A DNA stretch of 64,000 nt from NCBI GenBank assembly GCA_026023565.1, contig JAPETS010000021.1, forward strand, positions 186,001-250,000, in the 5' to 3' direction. The position numbers and the translations under genes were made by a program. The notes under the pieces were generated by a model. The model saw only the letters and a list, made by a program, of their open reading frames with translations. It was not told where the DNA came from and did no database searches. Positions 1 to 45,141 of the stretch are shown here, one piece after another (position 1 is the stretch's first letter; the number at the start of each line of letters is the position of its first letter). Source of the stretch: Cirrosporium novae-zelandiae. Lineage: Eukaryota.

Positions 1-784
1 GTTCAAGTCTTCCATACACACCACCACTACAACACTCCAGAAATTGTGGTCCACCATCGGCTTTCTTGTTTGTTCGCCTGGTTCCTGATTCTGTATAGCG
101 TATCCATCATCTTCCCCTCGAAATTCTGGTTGAAGTTGGAATAGTGGTAAATTTGATTTGGAAGCGCTTCTTTGTTTTGGTTCATGAAAAGTAAATTTCA
201 AGAAGAAGAAGAAGAAGCAACCTTACAAATAGTAATGCGCCTTAATAATTATCCCTCCCTAAATGCCGATGATGGATGGACAAAGCCGCAGAATGGAAGC
301 AGAAAGCGCTAAACGAGCACGCAATCCATCAAGTTCATGATGAGATTCCAAACAACGGTCACCAATAATGGAAAGTCTATCAAATACACAAATCAAGCAT
401 GAGTAATCCATTCAGCACGCAATCATTTTTTTTCTCTTCTATCGGTTCCACTCTGAGCCCTGGGTTTCTAATCTATGCTTGTTCAGTGAAGAAGTGTCAT
501 GTTAAATATAACAATAAATACTTCTCCCACTTTTTTTTTTCCAATATTCATTCCAGTGTCGTGTGCCTGTCTCTCTTCTCTATCCTTGGGTGGTTTCTTG
601 TCCGTCATCTTGACTGGCCTGCTCCGTTGACCGCAAACCAACCTCTACCTCGAACAAGAAAAAACTCCTTGACAGCTTGTGGAAACCCCACATCACAGTC
701 CCTCTTTAGACTGTCAAGATCCCTTTTTTTTCTTTTGGTTCGTCCCAGACCATTAGATATCGATAGAACTCCTGCCCTTCCAGC

Positions 785-1726
785 ATGTCCTCCTCCGAAC
801 ACGAAGAAATGGCAACTTCAAAGACCGAATTGGAATCAGGATACGCTTCAGCGTCTTCCTCCTCGCCCTCCTTTCCTCTAGTCCATCTCACCCCTTCTCA
901 CCTTACATTCTTGAACAATACGCTGGCCAATCTGCCTCCGCAAGACATCCTGAAGTGGGCTCTCCTTACCGTTCCAAATCTTTATCAAACAACGGCCCTA
1001 GGTCTTTCAGGTCTGGTCACCATGGACATGTTATCTAAGATCAACCTACCCAACCGGAAGGTCCCCGCCATCTTCCTCGACACACTCCACCACTTCTCCG
1101 AAACCCTGGATCTCCTGGACAGCATCAAGTCCCACTACCCTCGCCTGACCATCCACGTCTACAAACCATTGCACTGCGAGAGCGCAGACGAATTCGCCGC
1201 TATGCACGGTCCCGAACTCTGGAAGACCAACGAGCAACTCTACGATTACGTTGCCAAGGTCGAGCCCGCTCAACGAGCCTACTCTGAGCTCAATGTGGCA
1301 GCCGTGCTCACCGGACGTCGTCGCTCACAGGGGGCTGCTCGCTCGTCCCTCCCCGTCATCGAAATCGACGAGGCCGGCCTGCTCAAGCTAAACCCTCTCG
1401 CCAATTGGTCATTCTCCCAGGTATGGGCTTACATCAAAGAACACGACGTGCCCTACAACGCCCTAGTCGATCGCGGTTACAAGAGCGTCGGAGACTGGCA
1501 CAGCACAGAGAAAGTCAACGACAGCGATGGCGAACGCGGTGGTCGGTGGAAAGGAAGGGAGAAGACGGAATGCGGCATCCATAACCCCAGGAGCAAGTAT
1601 GCGCGCTTCCTGCGGGAGATGCAGATGAAGGAGAGTATGGAGGAGGGGGTCAGGAAGCGATTGGAGGGTGTGCAGCTAGCTCAATCAGGGTCCCAGGAAC
1701 AACCACAAGAAACCCAACAATTATAA
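785..1726 (+). CDS. MET16: PAPS (phosphoadenylyl-sulfate) reductase, single exon
   Basis: 313-aa ORF with QTTALGLSG, FLDTLHHF, TGRRRSQG, KLNPLANW, GYKSVGDWHST and the terminal ERGGRWKG..KTECGIH catalytic motif. Confidence 0.97.
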   Translation: MSSSEHEEMATSKTELESGYASASSSSPSFPLVHLTPSHLTFLNNTLANLPPQDILKWALLTVPNLYQTTALGLSGLVTMDMLSKINLPNRKVPAIFLDTLHHFSETLDLLDSIKSHYPRLTIHVYKPLHCESADEFAAMHGPELWKTNEQLYDYVAKVEPAQRAYSELNVAAVLTGRRRSQGAARSSLPVIEIDEAGLLKLNPLANWSFSQVWAYIKEHDVPYNALVDRGYKSVGDWHSTEKVNDSDGERGGRWKGREKTECGIHNPRSKYARFLREMQMKESMEEGVRKRLEGVQLAQSGSQEQPQETQQL

Positions 1727-2387: not shown

Positions 2388-4347
<1,960 letters not shown>

Positions 4348-5306: not shown

Positions 5307-6586
5307 ATGTCTCCCCTCAACAAAACACTTCCGGCTTCATGGTACACAAGCTCGCCGCTCTATCAACTCGAGAAACGTTCCGTCTTCTCCCAAGTAATAC
5401 GGCCTTCAGCAATAAATGATAAAATTGGCTGACCGGTAGTGCTACAGTCCTGGTACCTACTCGGTCCAATTACCCGCTTTATTAATGAAGACAACGTTCA
5501 GTATGAGCTTGCTCAAGTGAGGCTTCATGTGTGCAAAGACACGTCCTTGCCACAAGAACCATTGCCACGAGCGTTGAAAGTTATTAACTCGGAAGATGTA
5601 TGGCAGCTTCTGTTAGACTCCTGTCTCTTCATTGACTGAACTACTCTTGGGTAGGGCACAGAGTTGAAAAGCCACATAACTTCAAGTGGCCTACTCTTCA
5701 CGTCTCTTTCAAACGATGCTCCAGACTTCGAGGAATATTTTCCTGAACTCGAGCCACTTTTGGCTCAAGTCGACTTCACAAAGTTGCCATATAGGAAAAG
5801 CTTAAGCTATGAAGGGAATTTCAACTGGAAAACAATGTAAGATTTCACTGCTAACCATGAAGCCAAATTCCATGAATCTTTAGAATTGACTTCTCTGTCC
5901 AATTGAGGGTCGATGGATATCAGGAATGCCTTCACTGCCCCTATACCCATCCGTCCTTTGCAAATTTTTACCCAACAACCTTCTATACTGTTCATAATCA
6001 TGGCGCATTTTCCCGCCATATTGCTGATCCTGACAAGCCTGATGATGGGTTGTTCCTATTCTTTTTTCCCATATGTAAGTGACTGGCAGCTACGCTCAAT
6101 CTTGTCAGAGCTAGGGCTTATCGCGACCTATATCTAAAGGTACGCTCAATGTCTATGGTGGAGGCATGTCCTGCTTTCGTGTCTGCCCCACAACCGATCC
6201 CAATATTACTCGTATGGAGTTTGACTACTATCACCTTGAAGATGGTGAAGCCTTCGAAAAATACTTTCGTTTCGTTAGGCAAGTAGCTCTGGAAGACTTT
6301 GAGCTCTGCGAAAAAGCCCAAGCAAACCTAAAACTTGGTGTTTATAGCCAAGGGATTCTCAATCCTATCAAGGAATCGGGCGTAGCTCGTGAGTACTACC
6401 ATCTCCACCAATTGTCTATTCTAGGCGGCTAACAAAATGGTTAAAGACTATCAGCAACGGGTTCGAAAGCTCGTCTGTCTCCAATTTGAGATTGAAAGAG
6501 AGGGGGCTTCTCCATCAAAATACCAGGAGTCATCTTCAAACGGTATAAACAGCACACCAGGATCAACCGTTCAGGTCATTCATTGA
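5307..6586 (+). CDS. Rieske oxygenase alpha-subunit-like protein A (choline monooxygenase-like): catalytic mononuclear-iron domain intact, Rieske cluster motif absent; exons 5307-5393, 5448-5597, 5655-5836, 5908-6074, 6140-6388, 6447-6586
   Basis: Spliced translation MSPLNKTLPASWYTSSPLYQLEKRSVFSQSWYLLG...NFNWKTMVDGYQECLHCPYTHPSF...VALEDFELCEKAQANLKLGVYSQGILNPIKESGVAHYQ; five GT-AG introns keep the frame. Confidence 0.85.
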
Positions 6587-7373
6587 ATCTCGCATGCAGC
6601 TTTCAATTTGTTTGTTTGACATTGTCTTGATTAATTGTATATTGATCAAGGAGGGGGGTAGTGTTCTTATGGGGTATTCAACATATTCAACAAATAGTGC
6701 TTACCATCATCGTCGATAATGAGCCAACCGTATCCTTGACATAATTGTACTGTACAAATGACGCAGCAGCTCGACTTTAATTACCCCACCATTGCCCCTA
6801 CTTCCTACTTCACCTTCTCACTCTCATGTACTGTACAGCAACACAACTCGACCCTTCATAGATCAATAGGCATCTGCTGTAGGATACTCTTCCCATCACA
6901 AGTTCCCACTCAAAACAGTGCACCCAATTTTTCACAATGTGGCTATGGCGCAACTTGGCCATTCAGAGCTCTCACCTTCTCCACCTTTCAATCCAGGAAA
7001 TTTTCGCCGTAAAGGGTAAACTCGACTTTGGATCTACATATGGGTTAGACTATGCATAAAGATAAGGATGCGACTAATAAAATATTCCCACCGCTGTCAA
7101 GCATAGCATGTCTTTGCTGTCTATAGAAAGGGAACCCCGAAAGGGGATCTCGTATCCCACCACAAGCATGAATGAATCCCTGGTTTCATCCTGATCGAAG
7201 AAGCTTAATAAGCCCTGGTTTATTTTGGCACCGTTATCTTGAAATTCATTCATGACCCGATTCTTTATAAAAATGGGAGCACCGGCGAGTTGGGAAATGT
7301 AAAATGCGAAATCATACTATATGATATATTTATTACCAAACAAAAAAGTAGATTTGTCTAATTAAATTTGCCC

Positions 7374-8909
7374 ATGGAAGATTCTAATTTGTCCAACAAC
7401 ATCTCGCTCTCCATGTTTGAAGACTTGCTCGTGCTCATTCCTGCTCTTGTTGTCATACCTTTCCTTTTCTACATCTCTAAACACCACCACCATAAGGCAA
7501 AGCAACCCCCTGAGGGGTTTGCGAGCCAGGTGCCGCTTGATGTTCCCTGGCTCCAGTCATCCAAGCTCCATGCCCTCGAGCACCGCGCCCTCCTAGCGGA
7601 TTTTCCTATATATACTGGCCACACCTCCCACATACCCCATCCCGGCTCCTATGCAAGCCCCCCACATGCCCCCCTTCCAATATTCCTCATCCGAGGCAAA
7701 GACTCCCGTATCCGCACATTCCATAACGTCTGCCGGCACCGAGCATATACGGTGGTGAGGAAAGAGCGTGGGAAGGCATTGGTGGTTAGATGCCGCTATC
7801 ACGGATGGTGCTATGACTGGAAGGGAAGCCTGGTTAAAGCACCGAGCTTTGAACTCGGGGATACCAAAGAGGAGAATAGGCTTTGGGTGGTCAAGACAAA
7901 GGCAATCGATGAAGGGATTTTGGTAAGCTGGTTCGGCAGCGGTGTTGCTGTTGCACCGTTGAAGGATCTACAGCTGCTGGAGAAATGGACAAAAAGATGG
8001 GACATTAAGAATGCGGGAGAGATGGTTAAAAACTGGAGTATAGCAGGTAGATTTAATTGGAAAGTTATAGGTATGTGTGTGGGAATATTGTGTCTTCATG
8101 TGATGATGATGGTGATGATGGTGGTGGAAGGAGAAGTTACTGAGCTCTTAAGTAGATTGGGAAAGCGAGCCCATTATAACTACCACCCAGCCTAATAATG
8201 CATCATCACCATCACGGGTACTTCCCTGGCTGTGGCAGCAATCGGAAAGAGGATGTCACCTTCGACCATTCACAAAATTCCACGCCTTTGGTCGTCGATC
8301 CGGCTGGCTCGCCATCGTACTTCTCCCCACGTCTGCCACGACCACAGCCGTTCATTTCGAACTTCATCAATGCGGTGGTGATGATAATGATGACTACTCA
8401 GTGAACGAAAAATTCGTGAGGAAGCTTGAGGAGGAGATGCAAATGAAAGTCCGTCGTTGGGAACTTAAGCAGGAGGAGTTGGAGTATGACGATGGGTAAG
8501 TTTAGTTGCACACACAAGACAAAAAATTTCGCCATCTTTTGAGAGAGAGAGAGAGAGACGGGGTGGGGGGGGGGGGGGGAAAAAATGAAATGTTTTTAAC
8601 AAAATAATTGCTTTAGAACTACTACGAGAGCATGGCCGAAGTCGCATCAATGGATGCTTCCCATCATACGGAATCATCTGAAGTTAGAGCAAGAACAAAG
8701 ACAAGAGATCCACCCGGCTGCGATGCAAAAAAATGATGCAGATGAAGACCTAGAGGCTATACAACGTAAGTCCCAACTATTTTTTTTGCTTTAGGAACTT
8801 TTTGTCATTAATTACAATGCATATAGTATGCAAAGACCTGGAGCGTCCGCAGGGACTTTGTTCAACGAATCACGCCGAGCAGGGGAAAAGAGTGGACCTG
8901 ATTTGGTGA
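7374..8909 (+). CDS. Rieske oxygenase alpha-subunit-like protein B: Rieske [2Fe-2S] motif intact, N-terminal TM helix, iron-binding catalytic motif absent; exons 7374-8070, 8156-8495, 8617-8765, 8827-8909
   Basis: FHNVCRHRAY...RCRYHGWCYDWKGSLVKAP; FNWKVI followed by DWESEPIITT with no ExxHCxxxH; C-terminal NHLKLEQEQRQEIHPAA...LCKDLE...DLIW* tail as in fungal Rieske proteins. Confidence 0.85.
8541..8579. repeat. (GA)n microsatellite followed by a poly-G run inside intron 2 of Rieske gene B
   Basis: gagagagagagagagaga cggggtggggggggggggggg. Confidence 0.85.
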
Positions 8910-9243: not shown

Positions 9244-10889
9244 CTAGGGGAACCCTATTTTAACACATCCCCATGAACACCCCCTCCTTAGCAATGGCAC
9301 CCCCTGCCCTTCGTTAATACTCGTGCTAAGATATTCCAAATCCCTCATCGGAAACTGTGGCGGCACACAGCTCCACCATTCCACCCATTCTGTCCTAGGT
9401 AGCACAAAATCTCTCCTACACACACTGCATTTCCTCCCACCCTCCTCTTTGATTCTAACGGCCTCCTTAAGCGATCTGAACACCGCTGTGGAAGCGTCTT
9501 GTGGGAGAAGAGAAGATAGATGTGGGAGGAAAGGGCTGGAAGAGCAGGTACGGAGACAGTGTTCGAGAAGAGAAGGCACATGAGAATTTTGTGGAGGTGG
9601 TGGCGTAGAATTTAACTTGGATCGAGATACTGAGGGGGTTTTTGCAATTGTAATGGTATAGTTGGTAAGTGGGCGGCTTTGATTATCAAGAAAAGAGGGG
9701 GGGGTAAAGGATAAGAATGTTGGCTCCCAGGATAGAGGCCCTTCTTGAGAATCAACGCCAAGGGGAGCGTTGCCTCCAGTTGGAGCTATCGGCTCTAACT
9801 GTGCAGCCGGGGTTGATTTGGTTGAAATCGAGGTCATTGATTGTACAGATCCAGGAAAATCCCTTGCTTCGCAGAATGGATTGGGATATATACTTAGTAT
9901 TTTTAAATTCCTGTTCTTCCCAATAAGAAGTAGTAGAATTTCCCATGGTAGCCATTTCAACTTATTGCCGCTCACATTTAGCTCGACGAGGTTTGAAAGC
10001 TTATGGATAGCAGGAGGTATTTCTGTCAGTTTGTTGTTTTGAAGACTAAGCACGGTGAGATTATCAAAGTCAAATAGGGAACCGGGAAGAGATCGGAGGA
10101 TATTATGGGAGAGAAAGATGTGAAGAGACGGAGTCAGAGGCGCATAAAACTCTTGTGAAGGTGGGAAGAAATGCGCAGGTGGATGGCGAGTGAGGCATTT
10201 CAAGGGTTCAATCATATCACTGGTGAGCGATTTTAGACCAAGGTCGCTGGCGAAAAGGGCTAGTTAGCAAGTCTTGATAAACAATGAAGACAAACGGGGA
10301 ATACAAACGAGATATCTATATTTTCTTTTCCTTCCTCTAGACAGGCTTGGATGATTTGATTCGCCTTTTCCTCGAATGGATCGTGACCAGAATGGGCAGT
10401 CACAAGTTGAGGATAATTTGGATTGAATAACCAATTGACATTTGTTGCATCTTCTCTTCCAATATACGAACTGCCGTCAGTTATCTCCACTGAACTAGCC
10501 TCACTTCCTATCCAGACACCACTATCTAGGTTGCGGTGAAATTCGCGTTCCCATTTCTCCATAGTTTGGTGCGATTCACCAGCTTCTATATCCTCTTGTT
10601 CGACATTACCCCACCAGCCTCCCCGATATGTCCTCTTCTTTCTCTTCTTCTCGGGTAGATTGATGTAATCTTCCGCAGACGGCTCGCTGTCATCACTAGA
10701 AAAAAGCGGCGGATCGCTAGAGCTGCAATTTCCTGTGCTATCACAATATACCCATCGTGGCCTTTTACGGCTGTTGCATGTGGTCTGCGAAAAAGAACTA
10801 GCGCGTGAGAGAGGTGGGGATGGTGATGGTAGAGGAGGTAACTGGAGTACGTCTTGTTCGTCAGAATCATATATTGACTCTTCCATCAT
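9244..10889 (-). CDS. Leucine-rich repeat protein with BC-box-like segment and Cys-rich C-terminus; one intron about 10247-10308
   Basis: Acidic N-terminus, NIDIS|DLGLKSL junction, LRRs (LSHNILRSLP, LSLQNNKLTEIP, LNVSGNKLKWLP), PSLLEHCLRTC, CSVC, GCSWGC. Confidence 0.85.
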
Positions 10890-11659
10890 AGCAAGAGCAC
10901 GTAATAGCTCAGGATCTAGGAGAAATCACTAGGCAGTAACAATAATTTTATAAGGACTTGAGTAACTATTTAATCCGATAGACGCGCCTGTGTCTTGTTG
11001 CGTTAGAGGGACACGCTAAGATTGGCTAGATATCAGTCGCTAATCTGTACTTATCGGTTCATCTTATCTGCTTGCCCGCATTACTCAGCAATTAATTATA
11101 GAGCACTGGATCCATTGTGGTAGGAATAGCACAAATGAATATTTATTCTTTTATGCCTAAAGCTAAAGTCAAAGGTGAGTTACTTTAAAGTTCCCACTTT
11201 AAATAGTTGATAGAGTATCTAATAATTAGAATATATGATCAAGCTATTATGTTGACTAGAGCCAAACTTTGCACTGGACAAATACCATACATATTATGCC
11301 ATAATAAAAAAGTATGCGCTTCTAATCAACACGGAAAAAGAAACCACTTTTATAATCCATTATTCAAGCTCCAAGCCCTCAAACACGTTCCAACATCCAT
11401 CGTGAAGATAATAACAAGCCATAGCATACATCAAACCATTATCCGTCGAACCCACTAGCCCTCCGCCAAATCACACCTCAAGTGGAAATCAAATAGCTCT
11501 CCGAAGGTAAGGCAACACGTATTAAGAAACGAACAGGAAATATCGAGATAGACGAAGCAAAGAGAAATGCGAACCAAAGCAGCAGGATACCCGGGAAACC
11601 AAGTTCCATTATCACTACACACCATCCCTGGGCTCCAATTCCTATAACTAAGACCCGCG

Positions 11660-18219: not shown

Positions 18220-19796
18220 CTAACGAGCAACCTCAATAGCAGTGGCAATGGGCTTCTCAGTTTCAGCATCCTTTGAGTAGCCTTCTTCAAGGGAGGTGTC
18301 GTCGCCCTCGACAATGCCCACATGAGACCCGCGGTAGCCATCGAGATCCTTAGCGCAGAAGAGATTGAGGTATACTGGGAATGACCATGAGACCAAGAAA
18401 GCAGCAAGGGGAACTGCCATTCCAATCTTGACATCGCGGGCATCGGTTACGGCACCGAGGATAGGAGGGAAGACCGCACCACCAGAGACAGAGGCAACAA
18501 GGAAGGAGGCGCCCCTCTTGGTGTGGCGACCAAGGCCACGGAGAGAAAGCGTGAAGATGGTCGGGAAGATGCAGGACTCGAAGAAGAGGACGAGGGACAA
18601 ACATGCGATGCCAGCGCTTCCTTCAAGACCCAGCGTACAGGAAATGAAAACGATGATCATAGTCATGAAAATCCAAAGAATCAGTCGAGGCTTTAGGACT
18701 TTCATGGAAAACCCAGCAACGAAACGGCCAATTGCAAAGAGTCCCTGGGCGACTGCGAGCAAGTCCGAGCCCCTGGAGGAGGAAGTCCCAGGTTTAACCT
18801 TGATGCAATATTTAATAAAGTAGTTTGCGATCGCAACTTGACCTCCGACGTAGCAGAATTGTGCGGCTACACCCCAGAAAAGTCGGTATTGCTTCAACAA
18901 CGGCTTGTCCTCGTATCCAGTTTCATAAAGGGCACCTTGCTCCTCTGAATCATTCATATCCGCATCTGTAATTTCAGGAATCGGGGCGAAGAAAAAAACA
19001 ACAGACAGCAAAAAGACGAAGACAGCAATACCGAGGTAGGTCCATTGAACCGAATCAAGAGACTTTCCTCCTGGGCCACCAACGTTGTTGAAGAATACAC
19101 GAGCAGCAAGAAGAGGTGCGACAACAGTCCCGATGGCCTGGAACGCTTGAGACAGATTCAACCGCATCTCGGAGTATTTAGGAGGACCACACACGGCAAT
19201 ATACGGATTTGCCGAAGTCTCGAGAGTGGAGAGACCAGAACCCACGATGAACATTGCGCCTACAAATCCTCCAAATGAGCGCTTGACAGCCGCTGGCCAG
19301 AACATAAGAGCGCCCACTCCGTAGATGCAGAGACCGATAATGAAAGTCCATCTATAGCCGAACCTTCGGACACACCAGCCGCTGTAGGTAAGGGGTCCGA
19401 GGAAGTAGCTTTTAACAAGTTAGCATTGCATCACTGTATGCGGGTATTAGATGCTTCTTACGCTCCGAAATAAGCGCCAGACAAATCGGCAGCTTGGGTG
19501 TTGGTAACATTGAGAGTCTCTTGGAAATGTTGATTTAAGACATCAAGAAGTCCATAGGCAAATCCCCATAGGAAGCTACACGGATCAGTCAGTTGTTATT
19601 ATTGCGATTAAATCGAGTGCTTCACGTACAAGAGGATCGTAACCAGACAGACAGGAACTATGGACTGTCGGGTGGTAATTCCAGAAGCCCCAGTTATCTC
19701 GTTGTCGTTGACAACTTTCACCTTGCGATCGTTGGCTATAACATCATGCGCTGAGGGATGCCGATCTTCCACAGCACTGAACTTTCGATCGGCCAT
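18220..19796 (-). CDS. MFS transporter, L-fucose permease/glucose-galactose (FHS) family; two 5' introns
   Basis: FLWGFAYGLLDVLN, LETSANPYIAVCGP, QFCYVGGQV, FESCIFPTIFTLSLRGLGRHTKRG. Confidence 0.9.
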
Positions 19797-20816
19797 GGTA
19801 GGAGGCTTGTAGACAATGAAGAAAGCGGAAAGTTGAAGCCGGGCGGGTAGAGAGAAGGATGAGAGAATGGCTCGGAATTCCCAGGCTGTCGACTTTATCT
19901 GGTAAGCTGGGGAAGAGCCGATTATTTATATGCTCGAGGCAAACGCAAATATGAGATATGGATTCATTCTCAGCGCCGAGGACAGAACGAACAGGTTCAA
20001 GCAAGGAAACAGAACTAAGACCGACGACAAATCCTGCTGAAAGATGAGATGTGGAAAACTAGGTGGACTAGAGTAGGCATTGACGATTTGAGATGGGCTT
20101 ACAGACCTCAGACCATGACAGAATAGTTGATATATCCGAAGTAGCTATCAGAGGCAATAGGACCTATTGGTCAAAGTAATTCGGTCGATCTTCGGTTTCA
20201 GGAGAGCGGTTTATCCCCACGGGAAGTTTAGAATATGGGGAACGTGCGGAGGAGGAAAGGAGGGGAAGGAAAGGACGCCAAGAAAAACCCAAGACATCCA
20301 CCAAGTTCTCCGGACAAGAGGAAATAGATAATTAAAAACGTAATAGAGAGGAAGGAGATACGAAATGGTCTGGAAGTTTTTGAAAACCTTTGAAAAATCT
20401 CATTTTCATTCTTCCCGCTGTGTAAACAAGTATTGCGTAGTAAATACTTTTAAATGTTAAAAGTAGGTCCGTAAAAGTGCCGAAGAGATGAATGCTTTAA
20501 AGTTTTTTGGGGTGGTTGTTAAATTTCTCCGCATTCAAATCCATCCTGTGATAGACTAAGTTGTGATGGTTATAGATGAGGTTTTGTTGTACTGTGTAGA
20601 TTTTACTAAAGTACCCTTCTAGTGTCTTTCTAGAAGACAGTGAAGGCATTACCGCTACCACATCCAGTAATTGGTACCTCAATATCTCAACAACATGCCC
20701 ATCAAACCTTAACCTACCCTACCATAGCTACTCGAATATGCTTCAAAAAAAAAGCACATCTCATCCAGCCCTCAATTCGCCCTCGCTAGTCGCTCCTGTG
20801 ACTTCAATCAGCTCCG

Positions 20817-21578
20817 ATGAAAACTACCCTTCTGGATGCAATAGGCAAAACTTCAAGCCGCCTCGGTCATCTTTCTATTCCTAGAACAATCTCCTATGCT
20901 CATGCATCTCGCCTCCAAAATATTCTGGCTGACCGTCTTCTCTCCTCCAAGTCACATCCTTCTTCCAAGCCTTTTCCTGATCCTGTAATCCTAACTGCTC
21001 AATTTCACCCCACATATACTTGTGGTAGACGTGAGGTTTCCCATGTCTCTAAGTCACATGTTGAATATCTTCGCGCCGATGGTCGTGCTGAATTTTTCGA
21101 ATGCCTACGTGGTGGCCAAACCACATATCATGGACCTGGTCAGATGACTTCGTATCCAATATTGGACTTGAAACGATTCAAATTATCTCCAAGGTGTTAT
21201 ATTCACCTACTCGAAGAAGCTGTAATCCGAACTATCGCAGGATACGGGCTTAGGGGAGTGCGAACAGAGAACCCAGGTGTATGGATGCCTGGTGGTGAGA
21301 AGAAAATATGTGCTGTAGGCGTCAGGTTGAGAAGGAACGTGAGCAGCCATGGTATCGGCCTGAACGTAAAAAAGGAGGTGATGTGGGGATTTAATAGGAT
21401 TGTGGCTTGTGGGTTGGAGGGAAAGGAAGCTACGAGTTTGGAAGGTGAAGGAGTAAATGGAGTAAATGTGGAAGAAGTCGGGAATATGTTCGTGGGTGAA
21501 ATGAAGAAGCTCTTGGGAGTAGAAGAGACTTATAGGCTACAAGAGCAGGCTGTTCTAGCGCTCCAGGCAGAGTCATGA
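20817..21578 (+). CDS. LIP2: Lipoyl(octanoyl) transferase (LipB)
   Basis: HPTYTCGRR, RGGQTTYHGPGQ, KKICAVGV, SSHGIGLNV, IVACGL motifs. Confidence 0.92.
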   Translation: MKTTLLDAIGKTSSRLGHLSIPRTISYAHASRLQNILADRLLSSKSHPSSKPFPDPVILTAQFHPTYTCGRREVSHVSKSHVEYLRADGRAEFFECLRGGQTTYHGPGQMTSYPILDLKRFKLSPRCYIHLLEEAVIRTIAGYGLRGVRTENPGVWMPGGEKKICAVGVRLRRNVSSHGIGLNVKKEVMWGFNRIVACGLEGKEATSLEGEGVNGVNVEEVGNMFVGEMKKLLGVEETYRLQEQAVLALQAES

Positions 21579-33360: not shown

Positions 33361-35069
33361 ATGCTTATGCTCACTGCACTGGATGCGACATCCCATGTTC
33401 ATTTGATTGTCGGATCAAATGCTCTCGCGGCTTCAAGATGTGTTAAAAGTATTGGATTCGGAGCGATACCTATTGTCATCACGGGAGAATATCTACAGCT
33501 ACATCATACATTGACTGAAAAAGCTGAGGACGGGAAGATATTGCTAGTAAAGCGAGATTTCCACGATAGCGACCTGAGTAAACTGGGGCGAAAAGAAACT
33601 GATCATGTGGTGGATGCTGTATTTCTGACAATAGAAAGGAGCGACCCATTGAGTATATTTTCAATTTATCAGCGGCTTGACCGGCAACTAATCGTCGTTC
33701 AGGTGCTCATATCTCCAAGTTGTGTCGCCGATTACGAATACCTATTAATGTTGTGGATGCGCCCGACCTTTGCACATTTACTCTACTTTGTACTCACTCT
33801 GACGGCCCCTTACAAATTGGCATCACAACATCAGGCAATGGATGCAAGCTCGCCTCTCGAATAAGACGAGAAATAGCAGCATCGTTACCACAAAATCTAG
33901 GAAGCGCAATAGATAGACTAGGAAGAATTCGCCGACGCATATGGGAAGAAGATCAGGCACCCGAAGTTTCTTGTGATACGGCACCAGAAGTCGAGGATGA
34001 CGACGCGACAGCTCAGAAATCAAATTTCAATGCACTTGTCTTGTCAGAAGACCAGAACAACATGAAAAACCGAAGAATGCGATGGCTTAAACAAATATGC
34101 GAATATCGGCCACTAACAGAGCTAGTTCGCATCACCGATGAAGGCGTGGATTCTGTATTGGCTGCTTATAAGTCAAACTCAGAAATTTCATCTCTAAATG
34201 AAAAGATCGTTAGTCATACAAAGAAAGGGAAAATAATACTGGCTGGATGCGGACCCGGCAATCCAGATTTATTAACCCGTGCCACATACAAAGCTATCAA
34301 AGCTGCCGATATTATTTTAGCAGATAAGCTTGTACCTGGTCCAGTTCTGGACCTTATACCTCGTCGTACTAAATGTGAGATTGCACGAAAGTTCCCAGGA
34401 AATGCAGACAAAGCTCAAGAGGAATTTTTATCTTTAGCCCTGGAAAACCTAAAGGCCGGCAGATACGTTCTACGGCTGAAACAAGGAGATCCTTATTTGT
34501 ATGGCCGAGGTGCAGAAGAATTTGATTTTTTCAGAAATGAAGGATACCTTCCAACCGTGCTACCTGGAATTACTAGCGCATTCAGTGCTCCACTGTTTGC
34601 TGGAATTCCATCTACTCACAGAGGGGCCGCAGACCGAGTTCTGGTTTGTACCGGTACTGGAAGAAAAGGTGTAGCACCGGACCTACCTTCATATAACTCA
34701 AATCAGACAGTCGTTTTTCTCATGGCTCTTCATCGTCTGGACTCACTTGTAGAATCTCTTACGAAAGAATCAAAGGGCGATGAAGCAATAAAAGCGGCAT
34801 GGCCTCTAGCTACACCATGTGCTGTCATTGAACGCGCATCCTGCCCCGATCAAAGAATTATACGATCAACCCTTGAACATGTATGTGCTGCCGTGGAACA
34901 AGAGGGGTCTCGGCCCCCCGGACTTCTGGTAGTGGGATGGAACTGTGGGGTTTTACACAAAATAACCGGACAGAATTGGGTTACAGAAGAGGGATTTGGA
35001 GGCTTCGATGATCTAGAGATGGAACCAGACGAACTCAAAAGGCTAAAAGAGGTGGAGGCTTGGAAGTAA
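33361..35069 (+). CDS. MET1: Siroheme synthase / uroporphyrinogen-III C-methyltransferase; intron about 33653-33702
   Basis: HLIVGSNALAASR, IPINVVDAPDLCTF, GCKLASRIRRE, AGCGPGNPDLLT, RLKQGDPYLYGRG, VLPGITSA. Confidence 0.93.
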
Positions 35070-43479: not shown

Positions 43480-43981
43480 CTTGATGGAGGAACTGCTGCG
43501 ATGAAGAACAGTTAGTGGTAATGGTCAGAGAAGTAGAGAAATAAGAATATGTTGTATGGGGATCTCACCTTCAACTTTGAAACGCGGTGTTTGGCTGTCT
43601 ATTGTCCGTCAAATCCAAAACTTGGAGTGTGTGTGGGCACTTTCTTCTGCCTTAGTCATCTATCACGTGTCGCTTATTACCCTAGACAAATTTGGCCAAC
43701 GTTGGTCCTTGCCAGGTTAAATTCTACGTCGGAAGAAGCCTTGAGCTATGTTAAGAAAGTTAAGATCCGCCGCTAGCAGACCAGCAACTGTGTCATCATG
43801 CCCTGCAAGGCTATCAACAGGGAAGGTGGATTTATCAGCTAAATTACAAAGTACTGAAGGAGTTCGTTCAATCTGTCTTCATCTGTTAGCACCATCTTCA
43901 ATTCGGTTGCTTGTCAGCTTCTTCTCTACTCTAAATTCTTTCTTTTTTTACTGCTTATCAACGACTCGGTATCATCCAATC

Positions 43982-45141
43982 ATGGTACTCTTTAAAACAA
44001 TTTTTGCTGCTTCTCTCTATGTCCTAGGCGCCAATGCTGCCTCCGCTGTCCTCGACCTGATCCCAGAGAACTTCGACAAAGTTGTTCTCAGTTCTGGGAA
44101 GCCGGCTCTAGTGGAGTTCTTTGCGCCTTGGTGTGGGCATTGCAAGAAACTTGCCCCAATTTATGAAGAACTCGCTCAGAACTTTGCCTTTGCCGAGGAT
44201 AAAGTTTCTATTGCCAAAGTCGATGCCGATGCAAACAAGGACTTGGGGCGACGATTTGGTGTCCAAGGCTTCCCTACCCTAAAATGGTTTGACGGAAAGA
44301 GCGACACACCAGAAGAATATAATGGTGGAAGGGACCTGGATAGTTTGATGGAATTCATTACAGACAAGACCGCTATCAAGCCAAAAGCCAAGAAGGGACT
44401 TCCTAGTGACGTTGAGATGTTGAGTGATCAAACATTCGAAGAAAAAATAGGCGGAGAAAGTCATGTGCTTGTCGCTTTTACTGCCCCGTGGTGTGGACGT
44501 AAATATCCCTAACTTCGTCCTAAGCTATTTCATCCACGCTAACCATCGCCTTAGACTGCAAAAACCTTGCCCCTATTTGGGAATCCCTTGCCCATGATTT
44601 TGCTGCTGAGCCAAACGTCATAATCGCCAAGGTTGATGCTGAGGCGCCCAATTCGAAGGCCACCGCTTTGAAATACGAGGTCAAGTCGTATCCAACTATC
44701 AAATATTTCAAGAAAGGCACGAAGAAAGATGAACCATACGAAGGTGGACGTAGTGAAAACGACTTTGTCAACTTTATCAATGAAAAGGCCAATACCCATC
44801 GTACGGTTGGCGGCGGGCTGAATGAGGAGGGGGGTAGGGTCGATATTTTGGATGCTGTTATCTCAAAGCTGCCCGCCAGTAGTCTCGAAGATGTCACAGA
44901 ACTGGCCAAGCAGGAGGCATTTGGGTTGGAGGCCAAATACGCGAGCTACTATTTGAAGGTCCTTGATAAGCTAGCAAAGAGCGGGGAGTATGTACAGAAG
45001 GAGTTGAAAAGATTGGAAGGAATATTGAAGAAGCAGAAGGCTGGATTGGCGCCAGAGAAAATTGACGACTTGATGTCACGGAGCAATATTTTACGGCAGT
45101 TCGCCAGCCAAGAGCAGGACAAGGGCAAGGACGAGTTGTAA
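43982..45141 (+). CDS. tigA: Protein disulfide isomerase, TigA/ERp38 type; intron about 44499-44554
   Basis: Signal peptide, two APWCGHCK thioredoxin motifs, C-terminal ERp29-like helical domain, KDEL*. Confidence 0.92.

Follow-up and report, generated by a model that had tools for sequence, protein, structure and literature searches.

Tandem paralogs with complementary loss of cofactor sites: a candidate split Rieske oxygenase in Cirrosporium novae-zelandiae

Results

Two neighbouring genes with complementary cofactor motifs

The window analyzed here is a stretch of 64,000 nucleotides (G+C 44%) from Cirrosporium novae-zelandiae (assembly GCA_026023565.1, contig JAPETS010000021.1, positions 186,001 to 250,000 of the forward strand), a fungus placed in the Xylobotryomycetes, Pezizomycotina. 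It carries two neighbouring genes, here termed gene A and gene B, which are both related to the alpha subunits of Rieske oxygenases. The motifs of the mononuclear iron site are found in gene A and the Rieske [2Fe-2S] motif is found in gene B, i.e., the two sets of motifs are on separate genes, as in split oxygenases. The presence of both cofactor sites on one polypeptide, a trait of the single-gene fungal enzyme Cmo1 and proteins of its type, is absent in A and in B, which have one site each. While neither gene alone encodes a complete Rieske oxygenase alpha subunit (PF00355 plus PF00848), the pair carries every defining residue. Comparison of these sequences with their relatives suggests that A and B probably form a heteromeric split Rieske oxygenase, which would have arisen through duplication and complementary loss.

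The six exons of gene A translate without a stop. Their product is the public protein P0001 ('MAG: hypothetical protein M1834_003377 [Cirrosporium novae-zelandiae]', 332 aa), apart from one splice choice. For intron 3 of gene A (5837-5907), P0001 uses an acceptor at 5884 instead of 5908, which places nine residues where a single Met follows NWKT (a net gain of eight, beside the iron motif). The eight extra residues are found in no other aligned A-type protein (the class of gene A homologs described below) and acceptor 5908 restores NWKTMVDGYQEC; the public model was probably mis-spliced at acceptor 5884. Pfam analysis of the gene A exons matched PF00848 only (E 8.3e-8 and 3.4e-4), with no Rieske (PF00355) match. 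The motifs LPASWY, LEKRSVF, NWKTMVDGYQECLHCPYTH and EDFELCE were all confirmed, and the iron motif has the form Y-x-E-C-x-H-C-x3-H plus EDxxLC. Among solved structures, the closest relative of the intact fungal protein P0205 is CntA from Acinetobacter baumannii (PDB 6Y8J and others), with a full-length match at E 2.3e-39. Through the alignment of P0205, the gene A segment Y-Q-E-C-L-H-C-P-Y-T-H corresponds residue for residue to Y203-M-E205-C-Y-H208-C-G-P-A-H213 of CntA, including the aromatic Tyr (Y203), the bridging Glu (E205), the flanking Cys pair and the two His ligands of the iron (H208, H213).

Compared with 12 intact relatives, gene A lacks about 48 residues that include both [2Fe-2S] loops, from FHNVCRHR...CRYHGW to just beyond KAPxF. 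An alignment of 12 intact, 11 A-type and 11 B-type proteins showed that A-type proteins have also lost a variable insertion in the catalytic domain and the entire C-terminal extension. Since the intron at the site of the missing residues is only 57 bp long, it leaves no room for an unannotated exon that would bring back the cluster ligands of gene A. A hidden exon carrying CxH and CxxH, which the original prediction had named among the findings that would overturn it, was therefore rejected; moreover, the segment is absent in 61/61 full-length homologs. The AlphaFold2 (AF2) model of gene A has a predicted local distance difference test (pLDDT) score of 81, and its top Foldseek match was CntA (6zgp, E 1.3e-14, TMq 0.68, about 360 alignment columns).

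The four-exon product of gene B is identical, letter for letter, to the public protein P0121 (M1834_003378). Pfam analysis found the Rieske domain PF00355 in exon 1 (E 5.2e-12), no match in exon 2 and no PF00848 match in gene B. After NWKVI, neither [DE]xxHxxxxH nor EDxxLC is present; in the alignment and in the AF2 model, the fold of this catalytic region is kept, and the His/His/Asp residues and the bridging acid are absent. The AF2 model (pLDDT 72) superposes on complete alpha subunits over residues 51-370. VIA comparison gave Z of 20-22 to stachydrine demethylase Stc2, 3n0q and CntA, with a root-mean-square deviation of about 4 Å (3.9-4.0) over 280-293 aligned residues; the top value was Z 22 over 292 aligned residues, and that for CntA was Z 20. 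The catalytic domain of B therefore appears to be a degenerate copy and not foreign sequence. The predicted models of both A and B have the two-domain fold of the family, a Rieske beta-sandwich plus a helix-grip catalytic domain.

The product of gene B starts with a hydrophobic helix, which was found across the B family; a Kyte-Doolittle 19-residue maximum of at least 1.6 was reached by 59/61 B-type vs 1/52 A-type proteins, and no N-terminal extension like that of B was found in the 12 aligned intact forms. The model of this helix suggests that an A/B complex would be membrane-anchored, perhaps near a microsomal reductase. Two of the introns of gene B contain low-complexity features. Intron 1 (8071-8155) contains a run of ATG/GTG triplets, which reads as poly-His on the opposite strand, and intron 2 (8496-8616) contains a (GA)n run followed by a run of about 20 G bases.

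The original prediction, which was made from the letters of the window alone, had described a choline-monooxygenase-like start and a full catalytic signature in gene A, a shortened Rieske region without CxH or CxxH in the same gene, an intact CRH...CRYH with no catalytic motifs after NWKVI in gene B, and clean splicing of both genes without premature stops. All of these features were found where they had been placed, and of the two profiles proposed for scanning, PF00848 was found only in A and PF00355 only in B. The observation as such is confirmed.

Complementary losses across the A and B families

Three database searches (E <= 0.001) returned 231 proteins with the A exon query, 684 with the B exon 1 query and 3838 with the intact P0205 query. 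The counts in Table 2 cover the best 120 matches of each search, without any pre-filter for motifs. The same complementary pattern as in the window was seen in 61/61 A-type and 119/119 B-type proteins and can therefore not be due to chance. In the separate alignments of the A family (A1) and the B family (A2), the ligand columns are invariant in sets that were pre-selected by motif; the unbiased figures are thus the unfiltered counts. A protein-atlas search re-found only Ascomycota clusters with PF00848 alone.

Sequence conservation differs between the two parts of each protein. Among the 51 other members of the A family, mean pairwise identity is 81% in the catalytic part, 58% in the vestigial Rieske part and 17% in the tail. 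Among the 60 other members of the B family it is 71% in the Rieske domain and 33% in the vestigial catalytic part, values that are inflated by a set rich in Penicillium. Judged from these identities, the constraint on each copy sits in the domain of its retained cofactor. The A family has 90 invariant columns among the 51 other fungi, and A-type proteins of several classes are 56-67% identical to the product of gene A. In the B family (61 aligned), the four cluster ligands and the terminal W are invariant in a set pre-selected for both, and gene B keeps every column that is invariant in this same pre-selected set.

Table 2. Cofactor motifs and C-terminal residues in the three classes of proteins
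Class	n	Rieske motif	EC.HC...H	ED.xLC	C-terminus
A-type, 290-400 aa	61	0/61	61/61	61/61	W/F in 0/61
B-type (B exon 1 matches minus P0205)	119	119/119	0	0	W in 68/80 of >=380 aa
Intact	120	119/120	120/120	119/120	W in 112/114 of >=400 aa

A C-terminal tail retained with the cluster

A [LIM]-[DES]-[WF] tripeptide that closes a C-terminal extension has been reported to recruit the targeting complex of cytosolic iron-sulfur (Fe-S) assembly (CIA), and fungal choline monooxygenases are named there as [2Fe-2S] proteins that carry an extension of this kind; other families described in that report have lost the tail signal and the cluster ligands together (10.1101/2023.05.19.541488). The tail of gene B contains the elements H..LE..G..I.PA and C..L[DE], followed by a final L-I-W at 8898-8906. 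Like the CIA clients, B and the intact forms have an extension with [LIVMF]-x-W at its end, while the cluster-less A does not; the extension is absent in A-type proteins, none of which (0/61) ends in W or F. Among the 80 B-type proteins of at least 380 aa, 68 of which end in W, the endings include 47 LDW, 11 LAW, 4 LEW, 2 FDW, 2 VDW and 1 LIW. The cluster-less copy has thus lost the tail and the cluster-bearing copy has kept it, which provides independent support for A being cluster-free and B being a cytosol-facing Fe-S protein. With its terminal W, but with a middle residue outside the published [DES], B may be recognized by the CIA targeting complex.

Intact and B-type tails also share H..LE+..G..I.PA, a Cys in C-x2-L-[DE] and, often, a second Cys a few residues further on, before the final W. 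Columns C397 and L400 of the tail are at least 90% conserved in the aligned B family. We know of no role for this shared element (H..LE+..G..I.PA / C-x2-L-[DE]). The tail segment AEQLCKELD of gene B was considered as a relic of the EDFELCE of gene A; because both are present in intact forms, the segment belongs to the fungal C-terminal tail, and this candidate was rejected.

Table 1. Features of the A/B locus and of its surroundings (positions in the window)
Feature	Position	Strand	Remarks
Gene A, cluster-less catalytic paralog, ~324 aa	5307-6586	+	exons 5307-5393, 5448-5597, 5655-5836, 5908-6074, 6140-6388, 6447-6586
57-bp intron of gene A	5598-5654	+	exactly at the site of the ~48 missing residues (alignment with 12 intact forms)
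Y-Q-E-C-L-H-C-P-Y-T-H of gene A	5918-5950	+	aligned to CntA via the intact relative P0205
E-D-F-E-L-C-E of gene A	6292-6312	+	Asp aligned to CntA D323, the third Fe ligand
Spacer, gene A stop codon to gene B start codon, 787 bp	6587-7373	.	no long joining open frame
Gene B, Rieske-bearing paralog, 422 aa	7374-8909	+	exons 7374-8070, 8156-8495, 8617-8765, 8827-8909
N-terminal hydrophobic helix of gene B (residues 12-37), probable membrane anchor	7407-7484	+	AF2 helix; Kyte-Doolittle 19-residue maximum 2.3
Rieske ligands of gene B, C-R-H (7731-7739) and C-R-Y-H (7791-7802)	7731-7802	+	from sequence; in 119/119 B-type matches
Degenerate catalytic region of gene B	8055-8495	+	NWK 8055-8063 (end of exon 1), intron 1 (8071-8155), exon 2
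C-terminal extension of gene B, proposed CIA targeting-complex recognition tail	8617-8906	+	common to intact fungal Cmo1-type proteins; spans intron 3 (8766-8826)
3'-Phosphoadenosine 5'-phosphosulfate (PAPS) reductase	767-1726	+	PF01507, E 7e-50
ATP sulfurylase with adenosine 5'-phosphosulfate (APS)-kinase-like domain	2388-4055	-	PF01747, E 1.3e-87
Leucine-rich-repeat protein	9244-10925	-	Pfam
Major facilitator superfamily (MFS) transporter	18220-19419	-	Pfam
Lipoyl ligase/transferase-type protein	20802-21578	+	Pfam
Siroheme synthase-type methylase	33681-35069	+	PF00590, E 2.7e-41
Two-thioredoxin-domain ERp29-type protein	43745-45141	+	Pfam

Paralogy and origin of the pair

Comparison of the A and B families by hhalign gave a probability of 99% (E 4e-18); the 275 aligned columns begin at the N-terminal motif and extend as far as the last helix, and A and B are therefore full-length paralogs, in agreement with the tandem paralogy proposed at the outset. 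Both also matched the intact Geotrichum protein P0254 by BLASTP (A, E 7e-49; B, E 2e-34). Among the matches listed, the intact single-gene form was found in budding yeasts (Geotrichum, Pachysolen, Ogataea, Candida, Clavispora, Scheffersomyces and Brettanomyces), basidiomycetes (Gloeophyllum, Heliocybe, Fomitiporia and Rhizoctonia) and chytrids (Gonapodya and Hyaloraphidium), as well as in one helotialean ascomycete, Stipitochalara longipes, whose protein P0241 has both sites. In the tree, P0241 falls in a tight clade with P0205, P0242 and P0243.

A maximum-likelihood tree of 58 rows, built by a quick method and with long branches flagged, placed the A-type proteins in one clade (Shimodaira-Hasegawa-like approximate likelihood ratio test [SH-aLRT] 100) with a long stem (1.7) and short tips, and the B-type proteins in another (SH-aLRT 100) with a stem of 0.59 and long tips. 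The simplest reading of these data would be that a Cmo1-type gene was duplicated in tandem in an early filamentous ascomycete, which the tree does not prove. A B-type protein from Maublancomyces (Pezizomycetes) among the matches listed suggests that the split is old; the row of this protein has a gap after NWK, maybe because of a faulty gene model. The ancestor appears to be of the Cmo1 type of fungi, whose relationship to CntA is closer than that to plant choline monooxygenase (CMO).

Conserved order of A and B

The A-then-B arrangement, for which synteny had been proposed as a check, recurs in other fungi. An A-type and a B-type protein with the same 'longest contig' length were found in at least 12 species among the matches listed, pairs being assigned by eye from the match tables (best 120 of each search): Cirrosporium, Polytolypa, Aspergillus niger IFM50267, Pyrenochaeta, Neocucurbitaria VM-36, Amniculicola, Saccharata, Corynespora, Trichodelitschia, Kalmusia, Lophiostoma and P. 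malachiteum. The two genes have consecutive locus tags in six of these 12 (Cirrosporium, Polytolypa, Kalmusia, Neocucurbitaria, A. niger and P. malachiteum); the A. niger pair is P0042/P0224 and the Polytolypa pair is P0004/P0130.

Moreover, 21 of the best 120 A-exon matches are public models of 600-820 aa in which A is fused to B (P0014, P0021, P0028, P0031, P0035, P0040, P0046, P0056, P0058, P0062, P0071, P0077, P0078, P0083, P0086, P0093, P0095, P0100, P0102, P0105 and P0107). These come from Aspergillus, Penicillium, Blastomyces, Venturia, Lophiotrema and Neocucurbitaria. The EDxxLCE of A lies N-terminal of the B part in 21/21 and the B Rieske motif is present in 20/21, having been lost to mis-splicing in P0035; several of the models skip parts of A or B (e.g., P0014 and P0035). 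The fused models are likely annotation errors that are useful as evidence for adjacency. As they bridge A into B, the A-then-B order on one strand recurs in these genera.

Discussion

Comparison with known Rieske oxygenases

Among the matches listed, the closest full-length relatives of A and B are the Cmo1-type proteins. In Scheffersomyces stipitis, CMO1 has been reported to be required for growth with choline as the only source of nitrogen (PMC5816127, citing Linder 2014), and the same report proposes release of trimethylamine and glycolaldehyde by Cmo1 and describes a conserved, fungi-specific C-terminus. Cmo1-type proteins share the N-terminal TLPASW...LE+RA.F and the NWK with the pair, the catalytic motifs with A, and the Rieske motifs and W-ending tail with B. 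Unlike the pair, with its sites on two genes, Cmo1 carries both sites on a single polypeptide of about 440 aa, which has no membrane helix at its N-terminus. According to PMC6157903, none of the 'fungal CMO-like' proteins had been biochemically characterized. As Cmo1 is without such characterization, a substrate of A/B can only be inferred.

CntA has been described as a head-to-tail alpha3 trimer, in which the distance from cluster to iron is 44 Å within a subunit and about 12 Å across the subunit interface (PMC7948474). In the same report, Glu205 bridges cluster and iron, with E205 mutants being inactive, Tyr203 binds the quaternary ammonium, and the iron ligands are His208, His213 and Asp323. 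Gene A has kept the equivalents of Y203, E205, C206, H208, C209, H213 and D323, and gene B has kept the four Rieske ligands. CntA is a homotrimer with both sites in each subunit and with CntB as its reductase, whereas A and B have one site each.

Split Rieske oxygenases are already known, and the two precedents named in the original prediction are supported by the literature. In the heterodimeric chlorophyllide a oxygenase (CAO) of Micromonas (MpCAO1/MpCAO2) and relatives, two genes with one cofactor each have been reported to be both required (bioRxiv 10.1101/2025.02.10.637544, citing Kunugi 2013). As in A/B, the iron motif and the Rieske cluster are on separate genes, but the enzyme belongs to the PAO/CAO-type family, to another kingdom and to the plastid, whereas A/B belongs to the Cmo1/CntA lineage. 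In A/B, moreover, a membrane helix and a cytosolic Fe-S tail are found on the Rieske half only, and both halves are predicted by the models to keep the complete two-domain fold, a comparison made from the fungal side only. In the NdmCDE N7-demethylase of Pseudomonas putida CBB5, NdmC is reported to have the non-heme iron site and no Rieske cluster, the cluster being supplied by another polypeptide (PMC4408171). NdmC thus resembles gene A as a catalytic subunit without a Rieske cluster, but in that system the reductase NdmD carries the fused Rieske domain and the glutathione S-transferase (GST)-like NdmE is needed, whereas B is a full-length oxygenase paralog. No description of a split Cmo1/CMO-like enzyme in filamentous fungi was found in the literature searched, in which part of the searching was too broad to inform and which did not cover the possibly relevant Linder 2014; the A/B case in the Cmo1/CntA lineage was thus not found described.

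A possible mechanism of a heteromeric A/B enzyme

The ancestor would have been a single-gene Cmo1-type enzyme, with a C-terminal tail for Fe-S delivery in addition to its Rieske and CntA-like catalytic domains, and its gene may have been duplicated in tandem in an early filamentous ascomycete. Copy A has, as its sequence shows, lost the cluster loops and the delivery tail; its 2-His-1-Asp iron site is still present, as are the bridging Glu and the aromatic residue that binds quaternary amines in CntA. Copy B, by its sequence and model, has kept the Rieske cluster motif, the W-ending tail and the overall two-domain fold, lost all iron-site residues and gained a probable membrane helix at its N-terminus. 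In CntA, electrons cross only between neighbouring subunits of the head-to-tail ring, and A and B would therefore co-assemble, presumably through their retained scaffolds. The degenerate domains that each copy has kept could serve as scaffold in ring assembly, a role that the whole alpha-subunit fold in the model of B would fit. The bridging Glu is kept in 61/61 A-type members, which have no cluster of their own, and its only described role in CntA is in inter-subunit electron transfer.

In such a complex, the cytosolic CIA machinery would supply B with its [2Fe-2S] cluster, and some NAD(P)H-dependent reductase would reduce B at a membrane. Electrons would pass from the cluster of B through the bridging Glu of A to the iron of A, which would be the site of O2 activation. 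The substrate class is likely a quaternary or methylated amine, e.g., choline by analogy with yeast Cmo1; of all steps this one is the least secure, being extrapolated from the yeast genetic result and from the aromatic residue of CntA.

A more specific version of the split enzyme is proposed here tentatively, and with less confidence than the split itself. In filamentous ascomycetes that carry the pair, the Cmo1 oxygenase might have been replaced by an obligate hetero-oligomer of two full-length paralogs with one live and one dead domain each, in which only B-to-A junctions are productive, which is tethered to the membrane by the helix of B, and to which Fe-S delivery is addressed through the W tail of B alone. 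This would represent duplication, degeneration and complementation at the level of cofactors, locking a homomer into a heteromer, in a family found in Aspergillus, Penicillium and the dimorphic Onygenales.

Several observations weigh against a heteromeric enzyme or against parts of its proposed mechanism. Alternation of A and B is impossible in a closed head-to-tail trimer, so that at most one productive junction could form per trimer or the complex would have another stoichiometry. No gene for a ferredoxin-reductase-type or CntB-like reductase was found by Pfam in the 64-kb window. The gene B product of Cirrosporium is the longest branch of the B family (1.91 changes per column), its Rieske domain is only 46% identical to those of other B proteins, and it may be under relaxed constraint in this lineage. 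In addition, its cluster loops are modelled with low confidence (pLDDT 44-51). Its L-I-W ending has a middle residue outside the published [DES], as have the 11/80 B-type proteins that end in L-A-W. In the tree, the A, B, intact Pezizomycotina-like, yeast and basidiomycete clades form a polytomy, and A and B are not resolved as sisters. Finally, the contig pairs were assigned by eye, and adjacency could partly be a legacy of duplication and not selected.

It is unlikely that A and B work independently, with A being a Rieske-less oxygenase with another donor, B being a membrane-anchored Rieske carrier or a non-catalytic scaffold in another process, and the two being neighbours by tandem origin only. 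A Rieske-less oxygenase that is served by the Rieske domain of another protein is documented in NdmCDE (PMC4408171), and B is evolving much faster than A, which is unusual in a tightly co-adapted pair. The order and orientation of the two genes, however, are kept in at least 12 species and in 21 fused models from several classes, and the losses are exactly complementary in every member examined. For a mere ferredoxin-like carrier, the degenerate catalytic fold of B and its invariant NWK would be superfluous, and no other Rieske donor was seen in the 64-kb window.

It is very improbable that A and B are one gene, in which a long intron removes the stop codon of A and which encodes a circularly permuted polypeptide (catalytic half, membrane helix, Rieske half). 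The 21 fused models among the best 120 A-exon matches would be expected from such a gene, but several of them are visibly mis-spliced elsewhere (P0014 and P0035) and the other 99 are no longer than 400 aa. Public annotation splits A and B in two here and mostly elsewhere, gene A in the window has its own stop codon followed by 787 bp without a joining frame, and B-type proteins have their own Met and a conserved hydrophobic helix. That one or both genes are functionless, decaying remnants of a duplicated oxygenase is hardly credible; each does lack one cofactor site needed by the canonical enzyme and gene B is unusually divergent, but the frames are open through six and four exons, the catalytic domain of A has 81% mean identity and 90 invariant columns among 51 other fungi, and the Rieske motif is present in all 119 B-type matches of the unfiltered count.

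The interpretation given in the original prediction is partly supported. The paralogy, the complementary losses, the constraint on each retained domain, the recurring A-then-B order and the absence of a hidden exon in gene A agree with it, and A and B would probably form a heteromeric oxygenase. If the split enzyme is real, a widespread and highly conserved fungal enzyme is currently annotated as two unrelated proteins, 'hypothetical' or 'choline monooxygenase, chloroplastic', or is mis-fused, and gene models in dozens of public genomes could be corrected. The pair would also show cleanly, in nature, how the complementary loss of cofactor sites turns a homo-oligomeric metalloenzyme into an obligate heteromer, and it would serve as a built-in control for the published rule by which the C-terminal W signal and the Fe-S ligands travel together. 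In addition, it would offer a route to the biochemistry of the fungal Cmo1 type, including its substrate, its reductase and the release of trimethylamine from quaternary amines.

Genomic surroundings

Among the other genes identified in the window by Pfam (Table 1), the PAPS reductase and the ATP sulfurylase genes are located directly upstream of gene A and the leucine-rich-repeat protein gene is located directly downstream of gene B. Together with the siroheme synthase-type methylase, the PAPS reductase and the ATP sulfurylase represent three genes linked to sulfate assimilation within the same 64 kb.

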